Of a stretch of DNA of 64,000 nt, positions 2,907 to 27,505 are shown piece by piece. The notes below the pieces were generated by a model. It was not told the DNA's origin. It ran no database searches and was given only the letters and a program-made list of their open reading frames with translations. How positions within the stretch are numbered: the first letter of the stretch is position 1; every line of letters starts with the position of its first letter. Made by a program: the position numbers and the translations under genes. Source of the DNA: a virus. The DNA is taken from positions 2,334 to 66,333 of IMG/VR virus record IMGVR_UViG_3300035670_000181. One strand, written 5' to 3'.

Positions 2907-3841
2907 TCTGACATCCTTTCATAAGCTAAAATATCTTTAATTATTTTAATTAGATCAAAACGTGGCTCCCAGCCAAGTGATACTAATTTGGTAACATCTG
3001 GAACTCTTCTTGAAATTTCTGTGTATCCAGGATAAGCAGAGTCGTATGAAACATACTCTATCTCTGACTTAGAGCCTGCATACTTTATAACAGTCTTTGC
3101 TAATTCATTGATTGAAACTTCTTCTGGATTACCAATGTTATAGACTTCGCCATAATTGCCGTGATCTATGACTGTTAAAATTCCAGAAATGGCATCTTCG
3201 ATGTGGCAGAATGATCTAGTTTGGTTTCCATTACCATAAACAGGTATTGGAGAGTTGTCTCTTGCTGCAGAAACAAACCTAGGAATTACCATGCCGTACT
3301 TGCCAGTCTGTCCTGGTCCTGCTACGTTAAATAGTCTACCAATCTTTACCTTAAGGCCAAACTTTTTATTTAGTAGAATTAAAGATCTTTCGCTAATTGC
3401 TTTTGATTCAGCATATCCCCATCTTTGATCCCATGTAGCACCAATTACTCTGTTTGCATCTTCAGCCAATGGAACCAAAGTATTTAGTCCATAAATCTCA
3501 GAAGTTGATGCAAAAAATAATTCCTTATTGTGCTTTAGACATAGCTCAGCTATTTTTTTTGTTCCCTCAGTATTCTGATATAAAGACTCGTATGGATAGT
3601 CAAAACCATTCTTCATACCAACGATTGCTGCCAGGTGAATAACCCTATCAGAAGACTCTACAACTCTATCTAGCATGTCATATGTTGCAATATCTGCCTC
3701 TATGAAGGTATGATCAAAACCATTCTTTCGTGAGCTAGTTGACAAATTATCAATAATTGTTACAGTATGCCCTATGCGATAAAGGTGTTTTGCTAGGCTA
3801 TAGCCAATAAATCCATATCCACCAGTAATAAGATATTTCAT
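2903..3841 (-). CDS. NAD-dependent nucleotide-sugar epimerase/decarboxylase (extended SDR)
   Basis: ITGGYGFIG, HLAA, ASTSEIYG, YxxxK, QTRSFCH, YNIGNP, RRVPD. Confidence 0.9.
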   Translation of the reverse strand: MKYLITGGYGFIGYSLAKHLYRIGHTVTIIDNLSTSSRKNGFDHTFIEADIATYDMLDRVVESSDRVIHLAAIVGMKNGFDYPYESLYQNTEGTKKIAELCLKHNKELFFASTSEIYGLNTLVPLAEDANRVIGATWDQRWGYAESKAISERSLILLNKKFGLKVKIGRLFNVAGPGQTGKYGMVIPRFVSAARDNSPIPVYGNGNQTRSFCHIEDAISGILTVIDHGNYGEVYNIGNPEEVSINELAKTVIKYAGSKSEIEYVSYDSAYPGYTEISRRVPDVTKLVSLGWEPRFDLIKIIKDILAYERMSE

Positions 3842-4962
3842 TAAATTCTCTCACAGTCAATGACCTGCATATTATTTAGAATTGATGTATCAAAACCATC
3901 ATGCCTATGTACAACAATTACCAAATCTGTTTTAGAATCAATGTTTTGTGATTCAGTGTTCCTGTATTTTTTAACCACATCATCGTGCCAGTAAGTATTT
4001 GCACCAAGACTATTCAATCTATTTAATAGCTCCAGGCCCTGAGAGTTTGTAGTATACTCAACATTTGGCTTATATGAAATTCCAACAATACAAATTTTTT
4101 TATTGTTTACTGTGCCCAGCCTATTTATCGCTAATGATATAAAATAATTAATTGCCTTATCATTTACCGACAAGGCCTTGTCTATCATTCCTGCCTCAAT
4201 ACCCAGCTCAGCTGTAGATTCCAGTATAAAGGTTGGATCTACAGGAATGCAGTCACCGCCTGCACCTAGACCAGGCCTAAATGAACTAAATCCAAAAGGC
4301 TTTGTGTCTGCTAATGAAATAACACTGTTAACATTAATGCCAAGCTTATCAAGGATCATAGCATATTCATTAATAAAAGATATATTTATTAGCCTGTACG
4401 CATTTTCTAAAAGCTTTGCAGCCTCAGCATCTTCAACCGATCCAGATAGAACAACCTCATCAATAAAGGTTTTATAAAAATCTTCTGCTCTATCTCTTGC
4501 CAGCTCTGTTATTCCAGAAACTATTTTTGGTGTGTTGGATATATTCCAGCTATGGCCCCCAACATTTATTCTCTCTGGAGAATATGCAAGTTCAAAATAT
4601 TTACTGCTTTCTTCTAAAACCCTATGAAGTCTGCGTGTTGTTCCAATTGGCACCGTAGACTCTATGATGACTAATGCACCATCTTTAATGTTTTTAGATA
4701 TTGACTTAATTGCATTAAAAACATAGGCTGAGCTTGGCAATCCTGGCTTTGCTACTACGGTTGGCACACATACAACCAAAATATCTGATGACTTAATATC
4801 TGAATAATCAGATGAGACTGGATAGTCTACGGTATCAGACAGGCTTTGCACTAGTGCTTGATTAACATCAATACCAATTACAGAATGCTTTTCAGACCTA
4901 GCTATCGCATCTGATAAAGATCTTCCAACAATGCCCTGACCAATAACCGCTACCTTAGACAC
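3841..4962 (-). CDS. UDP-sugar (UDP-GlcNAc/ManNAc-type) 6-dehydrogenase
   Basis: GQGIVG, CVPT, ESTVP.GTT, SPER, KLLENAYR, GGDCIPVDP, SYKPN. Confidence 0.9.
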   Translation of the reverse strand: MSKVAVIGQGIVGRSLSDAIARSEKHSVIGIDVNQALVQSLSDTVDYPVSSDYSDIKSSDILVVCVPTVVAKPGLPSSAYVFNAIKSISKNIKDGALVIIESTVPIGTTRRLHRVLEESSKYFELAYSPERINVGGHSWNISNTPKIVSGITELARDRAEDFYKTFIDEVVLSGSVEDAEAAKLLENAYRLINISFINEYAMILDKLGINVNSVISLADTKPFGFSSFRPGLGAGGDCIPVDPTFILESTAELGIEAGMIDKALSVNDKAINYFISLAINRLGTVNNKKICIVGISYKPNVEYTTNSQGLELLNRLNSLGANTYWHDDVVKKYRNTESQNIDSKTDLVIVVHRHDGFDTSILNNMQVIDCERI

Positions 4963-5791: not shown

Positions 5792-7447
5792 CTAATTATT
5801 ACGTTTTGGTAACAGGACAACCTTGCCCTTCTCTGGAATGTATAAAAATCTTATTCCACTTTCCGTACAAGTCCTAATAGCATCCTCAAAACTATTTACT
5901 AAGGTATCTCCTGCTAAATTAAATGATGTATTTAGTATCATTGGAATACCTGTTTTATGATAAAAAGATTCTATCAATCTATAGTAGTTTTCGTTATCAG
6001 ACAAAGACACTGTTTGTATTCTGGAAGTACCATCATTATGCTGAAGTGCAGGTACAAGATCACGCTTATCTAGCTTTGCCTCTACTGCGTACATCATATG
6101 AGGACTTGACACTAAGCTAGCCATATCAAACCAAGCATGTGCATGCTCTTCTAATACGCTTCCAGCAAATGGTCTAAAGTATTCTCTTTTCTTAATTGTA
6201 TTAACAACATCTCTACCATTTGGATCTCTTGGATCGTATAGGATTGACCTATTACCCAATGCCCTGGGACCAGATTCCGCTTTTCCTTGATAAATGGCAA
6301 CAATGTTTCTATTTGCGATTAGCTCTGCTACCATGTCTGGGGTAGCATCATACATTGATAGATCATTGCTAAAACTATCATAAGAATAGTCTGCACCCTT
6401 GCCAAGGTATAGCCTATTGATCGGAGCTATAGACTTGTCCTGTGATAGTTCACGATAAACAAATAATGCTGCACCTATTGCGGTTCCAGAATCAGCAGAG
6501 TTTGGCTCTACGTAAAACTCAATGTCTGGGAAAGCCTTAAGATACTTATAGTTATTGACACAATTTAAGAAATACCCCCCACTCAGACATACCTTATTTA
6601 ATCCTGTGGTCTCTATGGCCCTTTTAATGAGCATTAAGGATGGTTCTAGGCTGTCATGTTGGACTCTATAGGCTAAATCCTCATTGCTGATATCTGCCTG
6701 TAGAATTTCCTGGTTAGCTATGCCATTAGTGAATGCTCTTGGATGCTCTGGGTTGTCGGTGCCATAGGCAGACAGCCCCATGACTTTTCCTGCATTATGA
6801 TAGCTGTTAAAAATCTTGATACCAGTTAAGCTAAACAGCTTTCCAATACTAACATTGCTATCTAGCTTATTGATTTCATAAGAGGTTGGGACATCTAGAT
6901 TACATCTAGAAAAATATGTCTTAGATTCCACATCCTGGACAAGCTTTTGATCATATTCAGATACTGTAAGCTGTCTAATAAGATTTTTATAGATTGGAGT
7001 AATTTCACTACGACTTGCAGAAAATATTGTTTCTGTTTCTCTATAGAGATATTCACTATCTATAAAAGATTGACCTGCACCGTCTACAACGAGTACTGCT
7101 GCATTTTCAAAACCAGAATTGTAGAATGCAAGTGCTGCATGAGATAGGTGATGATCCCTAAAATTGTAGGTGTTATACTTCTTATTGTTTTCAAAATGTT
7201 TATATAAGCCAGTAGAAAGCATGAGCGATGAAAAAACAGCATCAGCATCTATCTCGTGTGGAAATGCTCCAACAAATACAACATGTTCAGGGTCATACAA
7301 CCTCATAGCCTCTGCAAAGCTATTTATAACTCCAGTCGTATGCTTTGTATGGGTATAGCGTTCTTCTTCAGCATAATAAATTACTTGACCATTCTCAATA
7401 ACGCAAACGCTTCCATCGTGTGAAAGATTAACCCCCATCACTCTCAT
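5792..7447 (-). CDS. Carbamoyltransferase (NodU/CmcH family)
   Basis: HDGS, EEERY, HHLSHA, DGAG, GKVMGLSAYG, GPRALGNRSIL, KKREYFRPFA, LNTSFN. Confidence 0.92.
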   Translation of the reverse strand: MRVMGVNLSHDGSVCVIENGQVIYYAEEERYTHTKHTTGVINSFAEAMRLYDPEHVVFVGAFPHEIDADAVFSSLMLSTGLYKHFENNKKYNTYNFRDHHLSHAALAFYNSGFENAAVLVVDGAGQSFIDSEYLYRETETIFSASRSEITPIYKNLIRQLTVSEYDQKLVQDVESKTYFSRCNLDVPTSYEINKLDSNVSIGKLFSLTGIKIFNSYHNAGKVMGLSAYGTDNPEHPRAFTNGIANQEILQADISNEDLAYRVQHDSLEPSLMLIKRAIETTGLNKVCLSGGYFLNCVNNYKYLKAFPDIEFYVEPNSADSGTAIGAALFVYRELSQDKSIAPINRLYLGKGADYSYDSFSNDLSMYDATPDMVAELIANRNIVAIYQGKAESGPRALGNRSILYDPRDPNGRDVVNTIKKREYFRPFAGSVLEEHAHAWFDMASLVSSPHMMYAVEAKLDKRDLVPALQHNDGTSRIQTVSLSDNENYYRLIESFYHKTGIPMILNTSFNLAGDTLVNSFEDAIRTCTESGIRFLYIPEKGKVVLLPKRNN

Positions 7448-8577: not shown

Positions 8578-9150
8578 ATGATAATTATTGATGACTCTTT
8601 TATTTCTGAAGACTACGTGGCTATGACTCAAGAAGCTATTCTCTCTGACACTAGACCAATTTTTTGGACTTTGAATCAACAGACCAACGTTCCAGATGAA
8701 GAAAGTGTTTACGCTGTTCCAGATAAAAATACGCAGAGTGCCGTTCAATTTGTATCTCATGTAGACAAAAATCATCCACTTTATAATGGAATATTTGGAA
8801 TATTTAATTCATTTGTGAAAAAGCATGGTATTGATTTTGCAGAAATTGTGAGAATTAAAATAAACCTAATTCAGCCTGGACCAAATCCAGATGCTAGCAA
8901 ATATCATATGCCTCATGTTGACTCAGATTCTGAACACAAAGTTTTTATATATTACGTAAATGATAGTGACGGAGACACTATATTTTTTAATCAGGTTGCA
9001 GACGGACATAAGCCTGAAAAGTTTACTGTTATGAATAGAGTTTCCCCAAAGCGTGGACGTGGAGTAGTCTTTGATGGATCAATATATCATGCATCGTCTT
9101 CACCAATTGAGAATCAGTATAGATGTATAATTAATATTGATTTTGTTTAA
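8578..9150 (+). CDS. 2OG-Fe(II) oxygenase
   Basis: PHVD..IYYVNDSDGDT..PKRGR.VVFDG..YHASS.P..R..INI. Confidence 0.85.
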   Translation: MIIIDDSFISEDYVAMTQEAILSDTRPIFWTLNQQTNVPDEESVYAVPDKNTQSAVQFVSHVDKNHPLYNGIFGIFNSFVKKHGIDFAEIVRIKINLIQPGPNPDASKYHMPHVDSDSEHKVFIYYVNDSDGDTIFFNQVADGHKPEKFTVMNRVSPKRGRGVVFDGSIYHASSSPIENQYRCIINIDFV

Positions 9151-18196: not shown

Positions 18197-18895
18197 TTAT
18201 TCTGTTCCGTCTGACATTCTTGGGTTTTTTAAATGATGATACCAATGTGGCATAGAATATCTTGTTCCAGACCTTATTGGCATAATCTCATGTACATACA
18301 AGAAATTTGATGGGAAAAATACAATACTTCCAGCCTCTGGCTTTATCTTAACGTTAGACTGCCTAAACTCTATCTCTCCACCCTCATAATCATCATTTAG
18401 GTATGATACTGTAGAAATTAGTCTACTGCTTACCCCCAAATCTTGGTGTGCTGGCAGGTGTCCACCATCAGACTCGTATCGCAAAATACCATCCATTGGC
18501 TCCTCAGACTTTACAGCATTTTTAGCCCATGGATATAACACTGTGCTATAGTGCTCAAATGCTCTGTCTAGTGAGCCATATAATGCATCAGCAATTGTAA
18601 CTAAATCATTTTTATAAAAGTCATGCTCATCAATTTCATTATGACGATAAATATAAAACTTATAGTTAAATGGTTTTGGCATGTGATCATCCCACCATGG
18701 CTCCCAGTCACGAACCCTGGTAAAGCTATCTCCATGCTCTTTTGCATCATATCTATCACTCAGCTTCTTGACCAAGCTTACAATCTTTTTAGAATCTGGA
18801 ATAATATTTTTATAATATACCAGCCCAAGGTCAAGAACTTCAAAGTCTAGGCTCACAGCTACCTCACTATCTTTGTTTTGTATGTCTGTTCCCAC
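18197..18895 (-). CDS. 2OG-Fe(II) oxygenase, prolyl-4-hydroxylase-like
   Basis: HQD, YLNDDYEGGE, FFPSNFLY.H, G.RYS; true start may be slightly downstream. Confidence 0.88.
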   Translation of the reverse strand: MGTDIQNKDSEVAVSLDFEVLDLGLVYYKNIIPDSKKIVSLVKKLSDRYDAKEHGDSFTRVRDWEPWWDDHMPKPFNYKFYIYRHNEIDEHDFYKNDLVTIADALYGSLDRAFEHYSTVLYPWAKNAVKSEEPMDGILRYESDGGHLPAHQDLGVSSRLISTVSYLNDDYEGGEIEFRQSNVKIKPEAGSIVFFPSNFLYVHEIMPIRSGTRYSMPHWYHHLKNPRMSDGTE

Positions 18896-20271
18896 TTAAT
18901 TATATCATGCTCGTCGTTAAGTAGTGGCTGCCCCTTAATGTTTAGGCTAGTATTAAGCAATACTGGAACACCAGTTTCGCTATAAAACTTTTCCAATACT
19001 GCGTACAGGCCAGGGTGCTGATTGCGTGTCACTGTTTGAACCCTAGAAGTTCCATCAACGTGAACAACTGATGGAATAATATCTGGCTTTAAGCATTTAG
19101 GGGTATACTGCATATATGGAGACTCGTAGTCCATATTAAACCACTCAGAGGCATGCTCTGCCATTACCACAGGAGCAAATGGCCTAAAAAGCTCACGTTT
19201 TTTAATTTTATTAACCTTATTTTTGATATCTGGGTCTCTTGGATCAGCCAGGATGCTTCTATTTCCTAGTGCACGTGGACCAAACTCTGCCTTACCACTT
19301 GCCACTGCAGCAATCTTATTTGACATGATTTCATTAAAGATATCGTCTACTGGATATTCTCCACCAAGATCATATCCAAGGTATGGCCCTTGCCAATCCA
19401 AGTGTTTTCCATATAGGGCAGCTGCAGCCCCTAGCGAGCTTCCAGCATCTCCTGGGTTTGGCATAATCCAAACATTAGGGAATATGTCCCATAACATAGT
19501 ATTTGCCTTACTATTAAGTGCACAGCCACCCATAAAAACTAAATTCTGACTAGGCAACTCTTGCCTAATAATATACATAAAGTCCCAAAGTCTATCTTCA
19601 TATACAGCCTGTACTGCAGCTGCTATGTCAAACCTATCCTGCTCTGAAATTGTGTCATTCCAGTCAATTATTCCTTTATGAAATCCATATTTTTGTTTAT
19701 ATACAGATGGGAAATATTCTTCAATTTTATTTCGATACTTGTCAGGATTTCCATACCCTGCCATCCCCATCATAATATACTCTTCTTCGTTTTCCTTTAA
19801 GCCAATTAGCTGAGTAAATGCAGAATAGAATAATCCAAAGCTGTATGGATAAGACCAAGACCTGTATGGCTTTATGGTATCTTTATCTCCTATCCAAATG
19901 CTAGATGTTGTAAATTCTCCAATAGCGTCAAGCACAACAATTGTTGCATCTTTAAATGAGCTTGTATAATAACCTGCAGCTGCATGAGAGTAATGATGCC
20001 TAAATGCCTTATCGTAATGATGAGTTGGCTTCCAGTCAGATGCTCCACCACTTAGCATAAGCCTTAAATGCTTAAATTTTGGTTTTTCATAATAAGCAAT
20101 TGTATCTGGCTCACCAAACTTAAGTCCATCTAGCCATAGCTTATCATTGGTATACCAATCATTTTTTTGTTTACTATATCGTTCAGCATGACCAGCAAAT
20201 AAAATTTTTCCGTCTTCAATAACAGCTAGGGCAGCATCATGAGACGTTTCATTAAATCCAAGTATTCGCAT
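18859..20271 (-). CDS. Carbamoyltransferase (NodU/CmcH family), second copy
   Basis: SHDAA, HHYSHAA, DAIGE, MGMAGYG, EFGPRALGNRS, KRE.FRPFAP, LNTSLN. Confidence 0.92.
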   Translation of the reverse strand: MRILGFNETSHDAALAVIEDGKILFAGHAERYSKQKNDWYTNDKLWLDGLKFGEPDTIAYYEKPKFKHLRLMLSGGASDWKPTHHYDKAFRHHYSHAAAGYYTSSFKDATIVVLDAIGEFTTSSIWIGDKDTIKPYRSWSYPYSFGLFYSAFTQLIGLKENEEEYIMMGMAGYGNPDKYRNKIEEYFPSVYKQKYGFHKGIIDWNDTISEQDRFDIAAAVQAVYEDRLWDFMYIIRQELPSQNLVFMGGCALNSKANTMLWDIFPNVWIMPNPGDAGSSLGAAAALYGKHLDWQGPYLGYDLGGEYPVDDIFNEIMSNKIAAVASGKAEFGPRALGNRSILADPRDPDIKNKVNKIKKRELFRPFAPVVMAEHASEWFNMDYESPYMQYTPKCLKPDIIPSVVHVDGTSRVQTVTRNQHPGLYAVLEKFYSETGVPVLLNTSLNIKGQPLLNDEHDIIKWEQTYKTKIVR

Positions 20272-24393: not shown

Positions 24394-25128
24394 TTACTTA
24401 TACTCTTTCTTAGAGCGAAACTTATTCTTGTAGCCATTCAAGAAGGTGCTTCTAAGCCATAGCCTCTGATTATCAAACATTTCTCTAGCCTCTTCTGGTG
24501 TTTCAAGCTCCATTTCCCAAGATTCTCTTTGGAATGGCACTAACTGTAACATTGGAGTACCTTGCTTGATTACCCCCTTGAATCCCTTCTTTACCAAGAA
24601 TGACATGTGGCCGTCAGTAGCAAAAGTGTCAGTATCAACAATAGCACTAAATGCCCAAAGCGGTGAGTTGTCTGCGTGATGTGGATTCATAATTAAAGTG
24701 CTGTATCCCTTTGGAGTTCTGATTGCCCACATTGGCATTATTCTTAATAATTGCTTATGATAAAGTTCTGGATCAATTGGGTAATTTGCGTACTGTTCTG
24801 GAGAATGGTAAGAAAATACATCATTCTGCCACTCGTGTAGCTGAGATGGTATTGACCACTTTAGCTGGTTTGGATCAGTAGCATCTAAGAAAATATCGCA
24901 TGGAACACCAAGTATATATCCTGCTGTCATAGCATCAAAAATTGGCATACATCTTTTAATTGTTGATGTAGCAAATCCCATTGGGATGGTTTCTTCGTCC
25001 CTAATACTTCCAGGCTGTACCTTATACCATTCTGGTACGTACTTCACTGCTGGCTTTGGCTCTGGAACAAAAGTTTTAGTAGCATGATTAAATGGATAAA
25101 ACTTTATAAGGTTAGACTGCTTTTTCAT
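24394..25128 (-). CDS. Paralog of 23641-24393
   Basis: PEWYK, KRCMPIFDAMTAGY, TPKGYS, IVDTD, QGTPMLQLVPFQR. Confidence 0.6.
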   Translation of the reverse strand: MKKQSNLIKFYPFNHATKTFVPEPKPAVKYVPEWYKVQPGSIRDEETIPMGFATSTIKRCMPIFDAMTAGYILGVPCDIFLDATDPNQLKWSIPSQLHEWQNDVFSYHSPEQYANYPIDPELYHKQLLRIMPMWAIRTPKGYSTLIMNPHHADNSPLWAFSAIVDTDTFATDGHMSFLVKKGFKGVIKQGTPMLQLVPFQRESWEMELETPEEAREMFDNQRLWLRSTFLNGYKNKFRSKKEYK

Positions 25129-25789
25129 AGAACTCCTCTATTCTTTCTTTAATTATATCATTTACTGCAAAAACCATATCAAACATTGGCGATGGCATTC
25201 TTACTACTCCAAACTCACTATCTTCCATATGGGGTCCACTTTTCTTAAAACTAAATGGAATAAAGTGTGGCCTGACGTAGTCATTAGCGGTATTTCCAAT
25301 GTAATGTCTAAAATCCTTCATCTCGTAAATATGAAAGGCAGACTCTTCTTGTGGCTGCTCATAAGATATTTCTACATCAATATCTGGAAACCATGGAGTA
25401 TAAAACTTATGGATTACATCAAAACAATTATCAGGAACCGTGGCCTGAAAGTTAGTGGGATAATATTGTCTAACCCATGGCCTATCAACATGATAAAGCT
25501 CTTCGTTTTCTTCTTTTAATAAGAAAATATCTGCATGGGTGTATTGCCTTAGCCTAACAATATTGTTATTAATAGAAACAAGCTTTGGTGGTGCAATAAT
25601 GTTAGCAGCATACCAGTTAATTGGTTTAATTATGTTCCTGCCAAAATTACTTTGCAATACCTTTTGGTAAGATCTCCAGGATGGCCTAACCGTAGACTTA
25701 ATGCAAATATCCAAAAAATCAGGGTCTGGATTATTTTTCCAGGCATCTTTATCGAAATTTTCTGTACCTGGTGCGAACATCTCTTGCAT
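25112..25789 (-). CDS. Hypothetical protein
   Basis: 225-aa ORF with upstream TGGTATAAT. Confidence 0.6.
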   Translation of the reverse strand: MQEMFAPGTENFDKDAWKNNPDPDFLDICIKSTVRPSWRSYQKVLQSNFGRNIIKPINWYAANIIAPPKLVSINNNIVRLRQYTHADIFLLKEENEELYHVDRPWVRQYYPTNFQATVPDNCFDVIHKFYTPWFPDIDVEISYEQPQEESAFHIYEMKDFRHYIGNTANDYVRPHFIPFSFKKSGPHMEDSEFGVVRMPSPMFDMVFAVNDIIKERIEEFYEKAV

Positions 25790-25822
25790 ATTAAGCTCTT
25801 TCTACATAACAATTATACCATG

Positions 25823-25895
25823 CAGTCCGTATGGGATTCGAACCCATGATCTTCTCCGTGAAAGGGAGACGAGATAACCGCTACTCCAACGGACC
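25823..25895 (-). tRNA. tRNA-Glu(TTC)
   Basis: Cloverleaf; anticodon arm TCTCC-CTTTCAC-GGAGA; GTTCGAATC T-loop; no encoded CCA. Confidence 0.93.
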
Positions 25896-25899
25896 AAAG

Positions 25900-25973
25900 A
25901 GCTCCCTGTCAGGTTCGAACTGACGACCTATCGCTTACAAGGCGATTGCTCTGGCCAACTGAGCTAAGGAAGC
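25900..25973 (-). tRNA. tRNA-Thr(TGT)
   Basis: Anticodon arm ATCGC-CTTGTAA-GCGAT; TAGCTCAGTTGG D-arm; GTTCGAAC. Confidence 0.93.
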
Positions 25974-25976
25974 AAA

Positions 25977-26116
25977 TGCCATCCACGCAAGTGCTGATGG
26001 CTGTGTAATCTAAGTTCTCGCCTAGACGCATGATCTGTTGGCTGAACTCCTCAACCATACCGCTGGAACATGCAATTTCAACTACACGATCTTTGTACTT
26101 ATGTTCAGATACCATA
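25977..26116 (-). ncRNA. Candidate structured RNA between tRNA-Asp and tRNA-Thr
   Basis: Stems GAACAT/ATGTTC, GGTTGAG/TTCAGCC, TCTAGG/CTTAGA, GCCATC/GATGGC; G-U pairs favour the minus strand. Confidence 0.4.
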
Positions 26117-26123
26117 CAAAGAG

Positions 26124-26197
26124 CGACTCCGATGGGACTTGAACCCACGACCCCCACCGTGACAGGGTGGTGCTCTAACCTACTGAGCTACGAAGCC
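26124..26197 (-). tRNA. tRNA-Asp(GTC)
   Basis: Anticodon arm CCACC-CTGTCAC-GGTGG; GTTCAAGTC. Confidence 0.93.
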
Positions 26198-26202
26198 AAA
26201 AC

Positions 26203-26455
26203 AGAAGAGTTACGACCAGTCACTGCAATAGCGATAGCCGTTCATGCCTTCCGCACTCCTTTCGGAGTAGTGTGAGTAGGTGGATTGCCTTTTACCACCA
26301 GTGCCTAGTCAATACGGCTCGTCATAGATCCGCTTTTGAGCACACCCTCAGTTTAGCTTGCTAAGCTTGGACGCTAGTCCCCAAGTTGCCTTATTCTCCC
26401 CATTTGACTCTGAGAATTATTCAGCCATACTCCACAGAAACCGTCGTCTCTGTGT
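26203..26455 (-). ncRNA. Candidate ~250-nt multi-hairpin ncRNA between tRNA-Asn and tRNA-Asp
   Basis: Long-range stem GAGTATGGCT/GGTCGTAACTC enclosing several hairpins including ACTCC-GAAA-GGAGT; no minus-strand ORF of 60 aa or more. Confidence 0.6.
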
Positions 26456-26458
26456 TTG

Positions 26459-26530
26459 CTCCCCCTCCTGGATTCGAACCAGGAACCTTAGAGTTAACAG
26501 CTCTCTGCTCTGCCGTTGAGCTAAAGGGGA
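26459..26530 (-). tRNA. tRNA-Asn(GTT)
   Basis: Anticodon arm AGAG-CTGTTAA-CTCT; GGTTCGAATCC. Confidence 0.93.
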
Positions 26531-26538
26531 AAACCTAT

Positions 26539-27306
26539 TTACTTATATGTTGCAGCAGCTACTACAGTTGCTACTGATGTAGTATTACCAGCCTTGACAG
26601 CATATGGACTTACTAGATCAATTTTAGCAGAATCCTGTAGAGATGTTTTAATAGATTTTAGATTTGAACTAACAAATACTGGTAGGTTCATAACAATATC
26701 TGATCGTAGCTGGCTACCACGGTACATTGTAGAGCCAACAGCAACCACCTCATCAATACACGCTGGGTAGTTAATGTTATTTCCAGAACCATAGTTACCA
26801 GATGCTGCATATACCTTAGTTCCAGCATTAGACAAAGACTGAACATCGGAGACAATGTCTCCATGTAGAGTTTTTACATTAACACCAGTTGCCAGTGGCA
26901 AACACTTAGATCCACTGCCAGCATTTGCTGAGAAGGATACAGACTTAATATTTAGAGATTCACGATTAGCAATTACCCAATCAAGAGCAGTCTCAAGATT
27001 AACAGCATTCACGTTAGAAGTTGGAGATGCTGCATTAATTAGAACTAGCTTTGCTGATGGGTTGTTTGCTCTAGCAATGTTTGCCATGATTGTTCCATGA
27101 TTAAATACCTTGAACTGGGATGCTAGTCTTGGCGTTACGTTGGCACAAGATCCAGCTACTAGGCATACCTCAGTAAAATCTCCAGTAATGGCTGATTCAT
27201 CAAAATTAGAATCAATAATAACGATAGACTCTACACCCTCTGCCTGTGCTGGAGCAACTCCAACAATAGCAAACAGTGCAATAAATGTAGCAATTAGTTT
27301 TTTCAT
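26539..27306 (-). CDS. Secreted subtilisin-like (S8) serine protease
   Basis: Signal peptide ending AQA; IIDS, HGT, ASGN, YPAC, TTSVAT. Confidence 0.72.
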   Translation of the reverse strand: MKKLIATFIALFAIVGVAPAQAEGVESIVIIDSNFDESAITGDFTEVCLVAGSCANVTPRLASQFKVFNHGTIMANIARANNPSAKLVLINAASPTSNVNAVNLETALDWVIANRESLNIKSVSFSANAGSGSKCLPLATGVNVKTLHGDIVSDVQSLSNAGTKVYAASGNYGSGNNINYPACIDEVVAVGSTMYRGSQLRSDIVMNLPVFVSSNLKSIKTSLQDSAKIDLVSPYAVKAGNTTSVATVVAAATYK

Positions 27307-27328
27307 GTTTTCTTTCTTGTTTATTTGA

Positions 27329-27505
27329 TTAGTTATTTAGTAGTTTTACAACAGGAAGGCAGGGGTCTCCACCCTCTTCCCACTCTTTTTCTTCTTCTTC
27401 AGTCATGTATGGATCGCCATCATGTGTATTGCAGAATGGCTTAGATATCCATCCATTAGTAATTCCAACCTCTAGCCAGGCTAGGAACTCGTCTTCTTTT
27501 TCCAT
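27329..27505 (-). CDS. Small acidic hypothetical protein (58 aa, below the ORF-track cutoff)
   Basis: MEKEDEFLAWL..G..NGWIS.PFCNTHDG...EWEEGGDPC; own promoter. Confidence 0.7.
   Translation of the reverse strand: MEKEDEFLAWLEVGITNGWISKPFCNTHDGDPYMTEEEEKEWEEGGDPCLPVVKLLNN

Follow-up and report, generated by a model that had tools for sequence, protein, structure and literature searches.

The window (the whole 64,000-nt stretch of viral DNA analysed here) carries a cluster of four tRNA genes on its minus strand, in which a gap of 260 nt separates tRNA-Asn, whose sequence encodes no CCA end, from tRNA-Asp (Table 1). A sequence-only reading of this DNA had placed in the gap a non-coding minus-strand RNA that is richer in G+C than its surroundings and lacks the hallmarks of tmRNA and RNase P. 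These points were confirmed: the RNA occupies the gap, its G+C content is 0.485-0.515 compared to 0.335-0.44 in the flanks, no tmRNA was called by ARAGORN, and no RNase P match was obtained with Rfam. The gap RNA was predicted to fold at -85 kcal/mol (z -3.37), and none of 200 shuffled sequences folded as well. The ORF upstream of tRNA-Asn, for which PHROGs returned a weak protease match and nothing else, stops 8 nt before the tRNA gene. Past the tRNAs, the next plausible protein gene is a 225-aa ORF (25112-25789), about 410 nt beyond the 3' end of the RNA (26198). A Pfam search of the neighbouring proteins assigned no family to any of the eight (8/8).

Table 1. The tRNA cluster and the RNA embedded in it, with structural elements of the RNA, in window coordinates
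Feature	Position	Strand	Remarks and evidence
tRNA-Asn (GTT)	26458..26530	-	directly 5' of the RNA; ARAGORN; Rfam tRNA, 62.1 bits
manA-family core	26269..26454	-	Rfam RF01745; R1, 201.8 bits; covariation
P1 hairpin	26454-26446/26441-26433	-	core
Closing helix GAGUA/UACUC	26432-26428/26278-26274	-	core
GC pair and AUUCUC/GAGAAU hairpin	26425-26412/26398-26388	-	core
Inner junction helix, carries two hairpins	26385-26381/26351-26347	-	core
Inner hairpin 1, loop UAGC	26380-26369	-	core
Inner hairpin 2, loop AGC by the pairs used	26367-26355	-	core; UAGCA motif at 26363-26359
Long hairpin	26343-26301	-	core
GGUGG/CCACC hairpin, 11-nt loop	26299-26279	-	core
Lineage-specific 3' accessory domain	26198..26268	-	outside the Rfam match; fold; strain-variant substitutions
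GAAA-capped hairpin ACUCC-GAAA-GGAGU	26268-26264/26259-26255	-	fold
Long interrupted hairpin	26254-26247/26208-26201 and 26241-26230/26224-26212	-	fold
tRNA-Asp (GTC)	26123..26197	-	directly 3' of the RNA; ARAGORN; Rfam tRNA, 66.2 bits
Spacer tRNA-Asp/tRNA-Thr, 149 nt	25974..26122	-	highly conserved in relatives
tRNA-Thr (TGT)	25899-25973	-	ARAGORN; Rfam
tRNA-Glu (TTC)	25822-25895	-	ARAGORN; Rfam; with tRNA-Thr completes the four-tRNA cluster

The spacer between tRNA-Asp and tRNA-Thr was examined separately. It is 98% identical to its counterpart in a related locus, L046 (loci found in our searches are given L numbers), with 5 differences, and a contig from one sequencing run that spans 26011-26177, thereby covering the spacer for the most part and tRNA-Asp in part, has zero differences from the window. 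The spacer holds a possible ORF of 68 codons (26115-25909) which runs into tRNA-Thr, and four of the five differences from L046 alter an amino acid of this ORF. The fold of the spacer has a z of -2.11, and it gave zero matches in Rfam or Pfam. It may encode a small protein or be a further RNA.

Of the 42 large ORFs in the plausible gene map, 41 lie on the minus strand, the exception being 8578-9150 (+), and the shorter plus-strand ORFs overlap large minus-strand ones. PHROGs names a DnaE-like polymerase, a DnaB-like helicase, ribonucleotide reductase subunits, a terminase and tail proteins, as well as two carbamoyltransferases and a UDP-glucose dehydrogenase. The DnaE-like polymerase is at most 56.8% identical to the versions found in Streptomyces phages, e.g. 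BillNye. The carrier is a tailed phage and not a T4-like cyanophage. The DNA sequencing runs containing at least half of the sampled window words are labelled as subsurface metagenomes. Among the runs listed for 25000-27400 none is of RNA, two labelled RNA-Seq being flagged as probable DNA. The two Nol-like carbamoyltransferase genes (5792-7447 and 18859-20271) and the UDP-glucose dehydrogenase-like gene (3841-4962), all on the minus strand, suggest functions in sugar or surface modification.

When the whole window was scanned with Rfam at curated cut-offs, five matches were obtained: the four tRNAs and a manA RNA (RF01745) at 26269-26451 on the minus strand, whose score of 63.7 bits exceeds the gathering score (55.2). 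In a local search of 25700-27000 the manA match spanned model positions 1-192 of 192 (E 1.4e-15), and the 66,333-nt virus record contains no second manA match. The conserved blocks CUGAAUAA, UAAGG and GGUA-N6-AAUCC are all present in the cmscan alignment, in the family order, and all three are invariant across an alignment of 18 sequences. We consider it practically certain that the window RNA belongs to the manA family. This motif was described in 2010 by Weinberg et al. (PMC2864571), and 48 of its base pairs are statistically significant according to the Rfam 14 paper (PMC7779021). T4-like cyanophages, the classical carriers of manA, and marine metagenomes contain the canonical form. Model positions of about 100-116 are deleted in the window RNA, i.e. 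one model hairpin is missing, and about 66 nt before tRNA-Asp (26198-26268) fall outside the model. The window RNA is a divergent two-hairpin form of manA joined to a lineage-specific 3' accessory domain, the two making up a single RNA about 255 nt long.

The sequence-only reading had presented this RNA as unrecognised and possibly as a new class of tRNA-linked phage RNA, and had named cmscan against Rfam as a check, a known-family match being what would speak against novelty. The scan did match a known family; since RF01745 is matched over its full length and above the curated cut-off, the RNA does not constitute a new class. Any Rfam-based annotation would name it, and the supposed class drops out. 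For comparison with relatives we built a covariance model of our own, R1, from 18 two-hairpin sequences and the Rfam-derived structure, and this model matches the window once, with 201.8 bits. The idea of an RNA class unrelated to any described family could draw on the Rfam score being a mere 8.5 bits over the cut-off, on the absent model hairpin and the 66 nt outside the model, and on relatives that stay under the cut-off (L007, L009, L078 and L093, and likewise a copy in Streptomyces phage Annadreamy at 45.2 bits), but it is extremely improbable and was rejected at the family level, given the full-length match (E 1e-15), the invariant blocks and helix order common to canonical manA and the window RNA, and the fact that R1, built from two-hairpin forms alone, matches all 108 canonical-pattern loci listed, at 30-72 bits. 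A COG2908 RNA candidate on the plus strand (26249-26285) scored 20.6 bits against a cut-off of 58.7, and was taken as chance.

The order of the helices is the same in canonical manA and in the window RNA: a 5' hairpin with a GACG-type loop, the closing helix, the CUGAAUAA junction, UAAGG, an inner multi-stem junction, the long hairpin and the GGUA..AAUCC hairpin. Both have phage carriers, and the window RNA passes the Rfam cut-off, but its score is far from the 172-185 bits obtained with both of the canonical RNAs tested (2/2). The main structural difference lies in the inner junction. The Rfam consensus, like the canonical marine loci (e.g. L100 and L117), has three inner hairpins with GUGGUG, GNRA-like and ACCA loops, whereas the window RNA has two, with loops UAGC and UAGCA; its relatives also have two, with loops of the UUAGCG, UAGC or UAAC type. 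The window RNA further differs from canonical manA in its extra 3' domain and in its carrier. That some manA RNAs contain "modular structures" was already remarked by the original authors (PMC3023696). A two-base GC/GC kiss between the UAGC loops, suggested by the loops of L081 (UAAC and UAGUA), was rejected, as both loops read UAAC in the L198 group.

Covariation was assessed with two alignments. In a MAFFT alignment of 18 sequences, 81.7% of the cells were paired and 27 of 52 pairs were changed on both sides; none of 500 shuffles reached as high, and slid controls gave 41-50% paired cells. In an alignment of 23 sequences fitted to the model, which takes in distant members and is biased towards the model, 88.3% of the cells were paired and 43 of 52 pairs were changed on both sides, with a covariation score of 0.651 compared to 0.199 for shuffles (0/500 as high) and at most 0.156 for slid controls. 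The helices of the family, namely the 5' hairpin, closing helix, P3, inner junction helix, and long and terminal hairpins, are supported by covariation. In close strain variants, represented by contigs from two sequencing runs, none of the 12 core substitutions listed breaks a pair, and two core pairs go from UA to CG on both sides. The check for covariation proposed in the sequence-only reading came out positive for the core fold in both alignments, and its description of a real, ornate structured phage RNA physically tied to tRNA genes is correct. Most of the individual helices it had listed (CACAGAGAC/GTTTCTGTG, ATTCTC/GAGAAT, GGAC/GTCC, GGTGG/CCACC and ACTCC-GAAA-GGAGT) fit both the minimum-energy fold and the family structure. 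Two had to be replaced. The domain is closed by GAGUA/UACUC, all five pairs of which show changes on both sides in relatives (5/5), and not by the outer closure GAGTATGGCT/GGTCGTAACTC; the Francesca, L023 and L068 RNAs are devoid of the 3' stretch and therefore cannot form the latter. The bases assigned to a TGAG/CTCA hairpin belong, in the family fold, to CUUGG/CUGAG and GUGCUCA/UAGGCAC.

Downstream of the core, the UUUU that follows the long interrupted hairpin of the 3' domain abuts tRNA-Asp. A strain-variant contig of 318 nt has 13 substitutions in this hairpin, 12 of them at paired positions; all 8 changed pairs still pair, and 4 are changed on both sides. The domain has the same length in L212 as in the window, and is expanded in L220 (about 162 nt) and L197 (about 140 nt), both of which keep a GNRA loop (GAAA or GCAA) at the tip of the first hairpin. 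In one contig, 26199-26266 is replaced by 159 other letters. At this site just one short hairpin is present in L046, L063 and the L005 group, and L023, L068 and Francesca have no 3' domain. Its size across relatives is thus 0, about 19-30, 66 or 140-162 nt. Because both presence and size vary among relatives, the 3' domain is a real but optional accessory RNA domain, outside the family core.

Among phages, blastn with the window RNA gave Rhodococcus phage Francesca as the sole match (72.5% over 165 nt, E 1e-12). The Francesca RNA (76482-76664) is unannotated, scores 72.9 bits with the Rfam manA model, and is separated by 3 nt from the preceding tRNA-Met and by 1 nt from the following tRNA-Lys; used as a query against phages, it found nothing beyond itself. 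Annadreamy (L196) contains a more divergent copy (65451-65618 of the phage), directly after tRNA-Gln in a tRNA array, which is matched by R1 with 54.2 bits. Zero blastn matches were obtained with L007 against phages and plasmids or with the window RNA against plasmids, and zero R1 matches in the related phages BillNye, Bmoc and S-RSM4. Pattern scans of IMG/VR, one genome collection and metagenome contigs yielded at least 198 loci with the family blocks; two search patterns were modelled on the window's own subtype, and many of the sampled sequences are related and do not represent independent events. Among the matches listed, R1 recognised 44 of the 74 loci from the first scan, all four of L078-L081 and all 108 of L082-L189; the remaining 30 loci of the first scan were dropped as chance matches in coding DNA, not matched by R1. 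The two-hairpin UAGC-type relatives scored 56-69 bits with Rfam, and the cut-off was reached by 10 of 14 in each of two sets (L078 being in both).

Several of these loci deserve a separate mention. L081, the sole match in the genome collection, is on a 91.6-kb contig titled uncultured Polynucleobacter MAG, which may be a phage or prophage binned with Polynucleobacter. A G+C-rich manA group, consisting of L007 and about 40 similar loci from IMG/VR and from metagenome contigs labelled as gut, is flanked by tRNA-Ser(GCT) and tRNA-Tyr(GTA); most of its members have a 133-nt insert before tRNA-Tyr, which five IMG/VR loci do not have, and with the Rfam manA model L007 and L009 stay under the cut-off. 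Two contigs with two-hairpin manA, L200 and L230, encode a tmRNA (6817-7147 and 384-716, respectively, both on the minus strand; 117-125 bits), with manA about 2 kb from the tmRNA and a tRNA. In L130, an array of about 25 tRNAs includes a match to the selenocysteine tRNA model (4863-4946, plus strand; 48.5 bits vs. a cut-off of 47). In Annadreamy (positions of L196), the manA-like RNA is immediately followed by a tRNA-like sequence that is not annotated, has a T-arm and ends in GCCA (1221-1292), and a weak match to YrlA (Y RNA-like) is found after tRNA-Ile (1582-1688; 37.8 bits vs. a cut-off of 69). The Annadreamy array may hold more unannotated RNAs.

The genomic context was compared for 126 distinct cores from at least 199 loci, the window included, by recording same-strand tRNAs called by ARAGORN. 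Among the matches listed, 26 of the 41 two-hairpin cores with UAGC-type loops have a tRNA within 60 nt, 28 have one within 200 nt, and 16 have tRNAs within 200 nt on both sides. For the four two-hairpin cores with GUGGU/ACCA loops, the corresponding numbers among the matches listed are 1, 3 and 1. By contrast, canonical three-hairpin manA precedes protein genes, and among the matches listed only one of 81 such cores has a tRNA within 60 nt, three have one within 200 nt, and none has tRNAs within 200 nt on both sides. These counts are lower bounds, because ARAGORN missed low-scoring tRNAs directly upstream of the RNA in L023, L046 and L212, which were found by Rfam. The missed tRNAs are short (Rfam 43 bits; L023 5263-5331, L046 5774-5841 and L212 393-460, all on the minus strand) and are inserted between tRNA-Asn and the RNA; this extra tRNA is absent from the window.

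The flanking tRNAs occur in 16 different combinations among the matches listed, some of them one-sided, the two-sided ones including Asn/Asp, Gly/Asp, Asp/Gly, Met/Lys, Ser/Tyr, Gly/Pro, Pro/Thr and Met/Ala. One chance event passed on by descent therefore does not account for the arrangement. The gaps before and after the RNA are as short as 7 and 1 nt (L068), 7 and 0 nt (L023) or 11 and 6 nt (L157), which leaves no room for an expression platform. The "cis-reg" label of manA is based on a position in 5' UTRs, and the window RNA, with tRNA-Asn and tRNA-Asp as neighbours, is located differently. We did not find a split between a two-hairpin form in tRNA arrays and a canonical 5'-UTR form in the literature; supplementary sets may show it. 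A 2026 preprint distinguishes "two related sets" of manA that differ in peripheral helices (bioRxiv 10.64898/2026.07.01.735769). That manA members can lie beside tRNAs is already known: in the Bifidobacterium breve megaplasmid pMP7017, a manA motif in the tRNA array region is one of two non-coding RNAs identified by transcriptomics (PMC10832533). As in the window, the RNA adjoins tRNA genes on a mobile element, here an actinobacterial one, but this is a plasmid and not a phage, and the two are likened here by description, not by sequence.

In many phages the two-hairpin form fits flush against tRNA genes on either side, which argues that it is a processed, free RNA. The explanation that we consider best overall, and adopt with moderate confidence, is that the RNA is co-transcribed with the tRNAs, freed by tRNA processing and acts as a free RNA. 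With the upstream ORF ending so close to tRNA-Asn, the RNA and the tRNAs would be transcribed in one precursor. The RNA would then be freed by processing of the tRNA-Asn 3' end and by RNase P, whose cut at the start of tRNA-Asp would set the 3' end of the RNA. The freed product would be about 255 nt long in the window phage and about 160-190 nt in the flush relatives. It would act as a compactly folded free RNA and not as a switch in a messenger leader, and, by analogy with other manA RNAs, it may form a multimeric particle. Judging from the known maturation of tRNA precursors, release as a discrete species is probable. RNase P takes part in the release of the species I and II RNAs of phage T4. 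These are small stable RNAs produced from a phage tRNA precursor, one that also yields eight tRNAs (PMC2330249), and serve as a precedent for the proposed release; the likeness to the window RNA is one of description only.

A cis-acting riboswitch or attenuator would assign other roles to the same elements: the core would bind a ligand, and the 3' hairpin with its U-run would serve as a conditional terminator before tRNA-Asp, tRNA-Thr, tRNA-Glu and later genes. manA was indeed proposed as a riboswitch candidate in 5' UTRs (PMC2864571). In the window, the long hairpin is followed by UUUU just before tRNA-Asp and could be a weak terminator, and the UACUC strand of the closing helix recurs 4 nt downstream as UACUCC, which could pair alternatively with GGAGUA. 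Some two-hairpin members with no tRNA nearby also speak for such a role, and against a free RNA. In L215 the RNA is directly followed by a U-run, GGAGG and ATG, resembling a ribosome-binding site and start codon, and in L200 it is abutted by a terminator-like hairpin (9270-9241), then an ORF; both look cis-regulatory. L226 sits between two terminator-like sites, an arrangement equally compatible with a small independent gene and with a switch. Promoters seen by eye before L200, L226 and L223, all devoid of tRNAs, were not relied on, as the scanner called none. On the other hand, many relatives are 0-6 nt from the next tRNA with zero platform, the 3' domain is optional and variable in size, and the terminator scan of the window, with a scanner that cannot handle interrupted stems, called no site at the 3' hairpin. 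No manA ligand is reported in the literature cited here. We know of no precedent for tRNA genes under riboswitch control. For the window RNA we therefore regard a riboswitch or attenuator as unlikely.

Another role is suggested by the tight and repeated association with phage and plasmid tRNA arrays, units of which have been termed a putative antidefence system (PMC12803027). The RNA might be an accessory of the array, either as a decoy or inhibitor of tRNA-attacking host nucleases or defences, or as a module for processing or stability of the precursor. This is less plausible still. Among the matches listed, 13 of the 41 two-hairpin cores are without a same-strand tRNA in the 200 nt around them, canonical manA is almost never near a tRNA, and no conserved protein partner was seen, the neighbours being without Pfam matches.

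If the window RNA acts as a processed free RNA, what form could it take? In vitro, manA RNAs form closed RNA-only particles of 8, 10 and 60 subunits, held together by contacts between loops L5-L7' and L8-L9' (bioRxiv 10.64898/2026.07.01.735769). The text of this preprint deals with cages in vitro, does not address their biology and mentions tRNA zero times. Compared to the oligomer-forming variants, the window RNA is without the third inner hairpin, and its loop sequences differ. That it multimerises is, by analogy, conceivable but doubtful. A second analogy, drawn already in the sequence-only reading, is with the large phage RNAs GOLLD and ROOL, which are found near tRNA islands and form RNA-only cages (PMC12286853). 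It is an apt one as an analogy, since these are also phage or prophage RNAs, often located by tRNA islands, and form closed multimers as manA does in vitro. They are, however, 600-800 nt or longer as opposed to about 255 nt, with no relation in sequence or structure, and their multimers are established, whereas a multimer of the window subtype is a proposal by analogy. With the GOLLD and ROOL models, the window as a whole yielded nothing at the gathering score, and 25700-27000 yielded nothing at E values of up to 10.

It is tempting to speculate that two-hairpin manA with UAGC loops is a distinct, free-standing phage RNA, made from its own small unit or by excision from a tRNA precursor, which assembles into an RNA-only multimeric particle as a small counterpart of GOLLD and ROOL. 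We put this forward tentatively, as something that may well prove wrong; if true, manA would not be a riboswitch, and phage tRNA arrays would routinely carry cage-forming RNAs. Since 2010 manA has remained an orphan among riboswitch candidates, and the residual interest of the window RNA lies in its context. The tRNA-embedded form occurs in cultivable actinophages (Francesca and Annadreamy), which offer tractable phage-host pairs in which the function of manA is directly testable. With it, manA joins GOLLD and ROOL, as a third family, in the pattern of structured RNAs that form multimers and accompany the tRNA clusters of phages.
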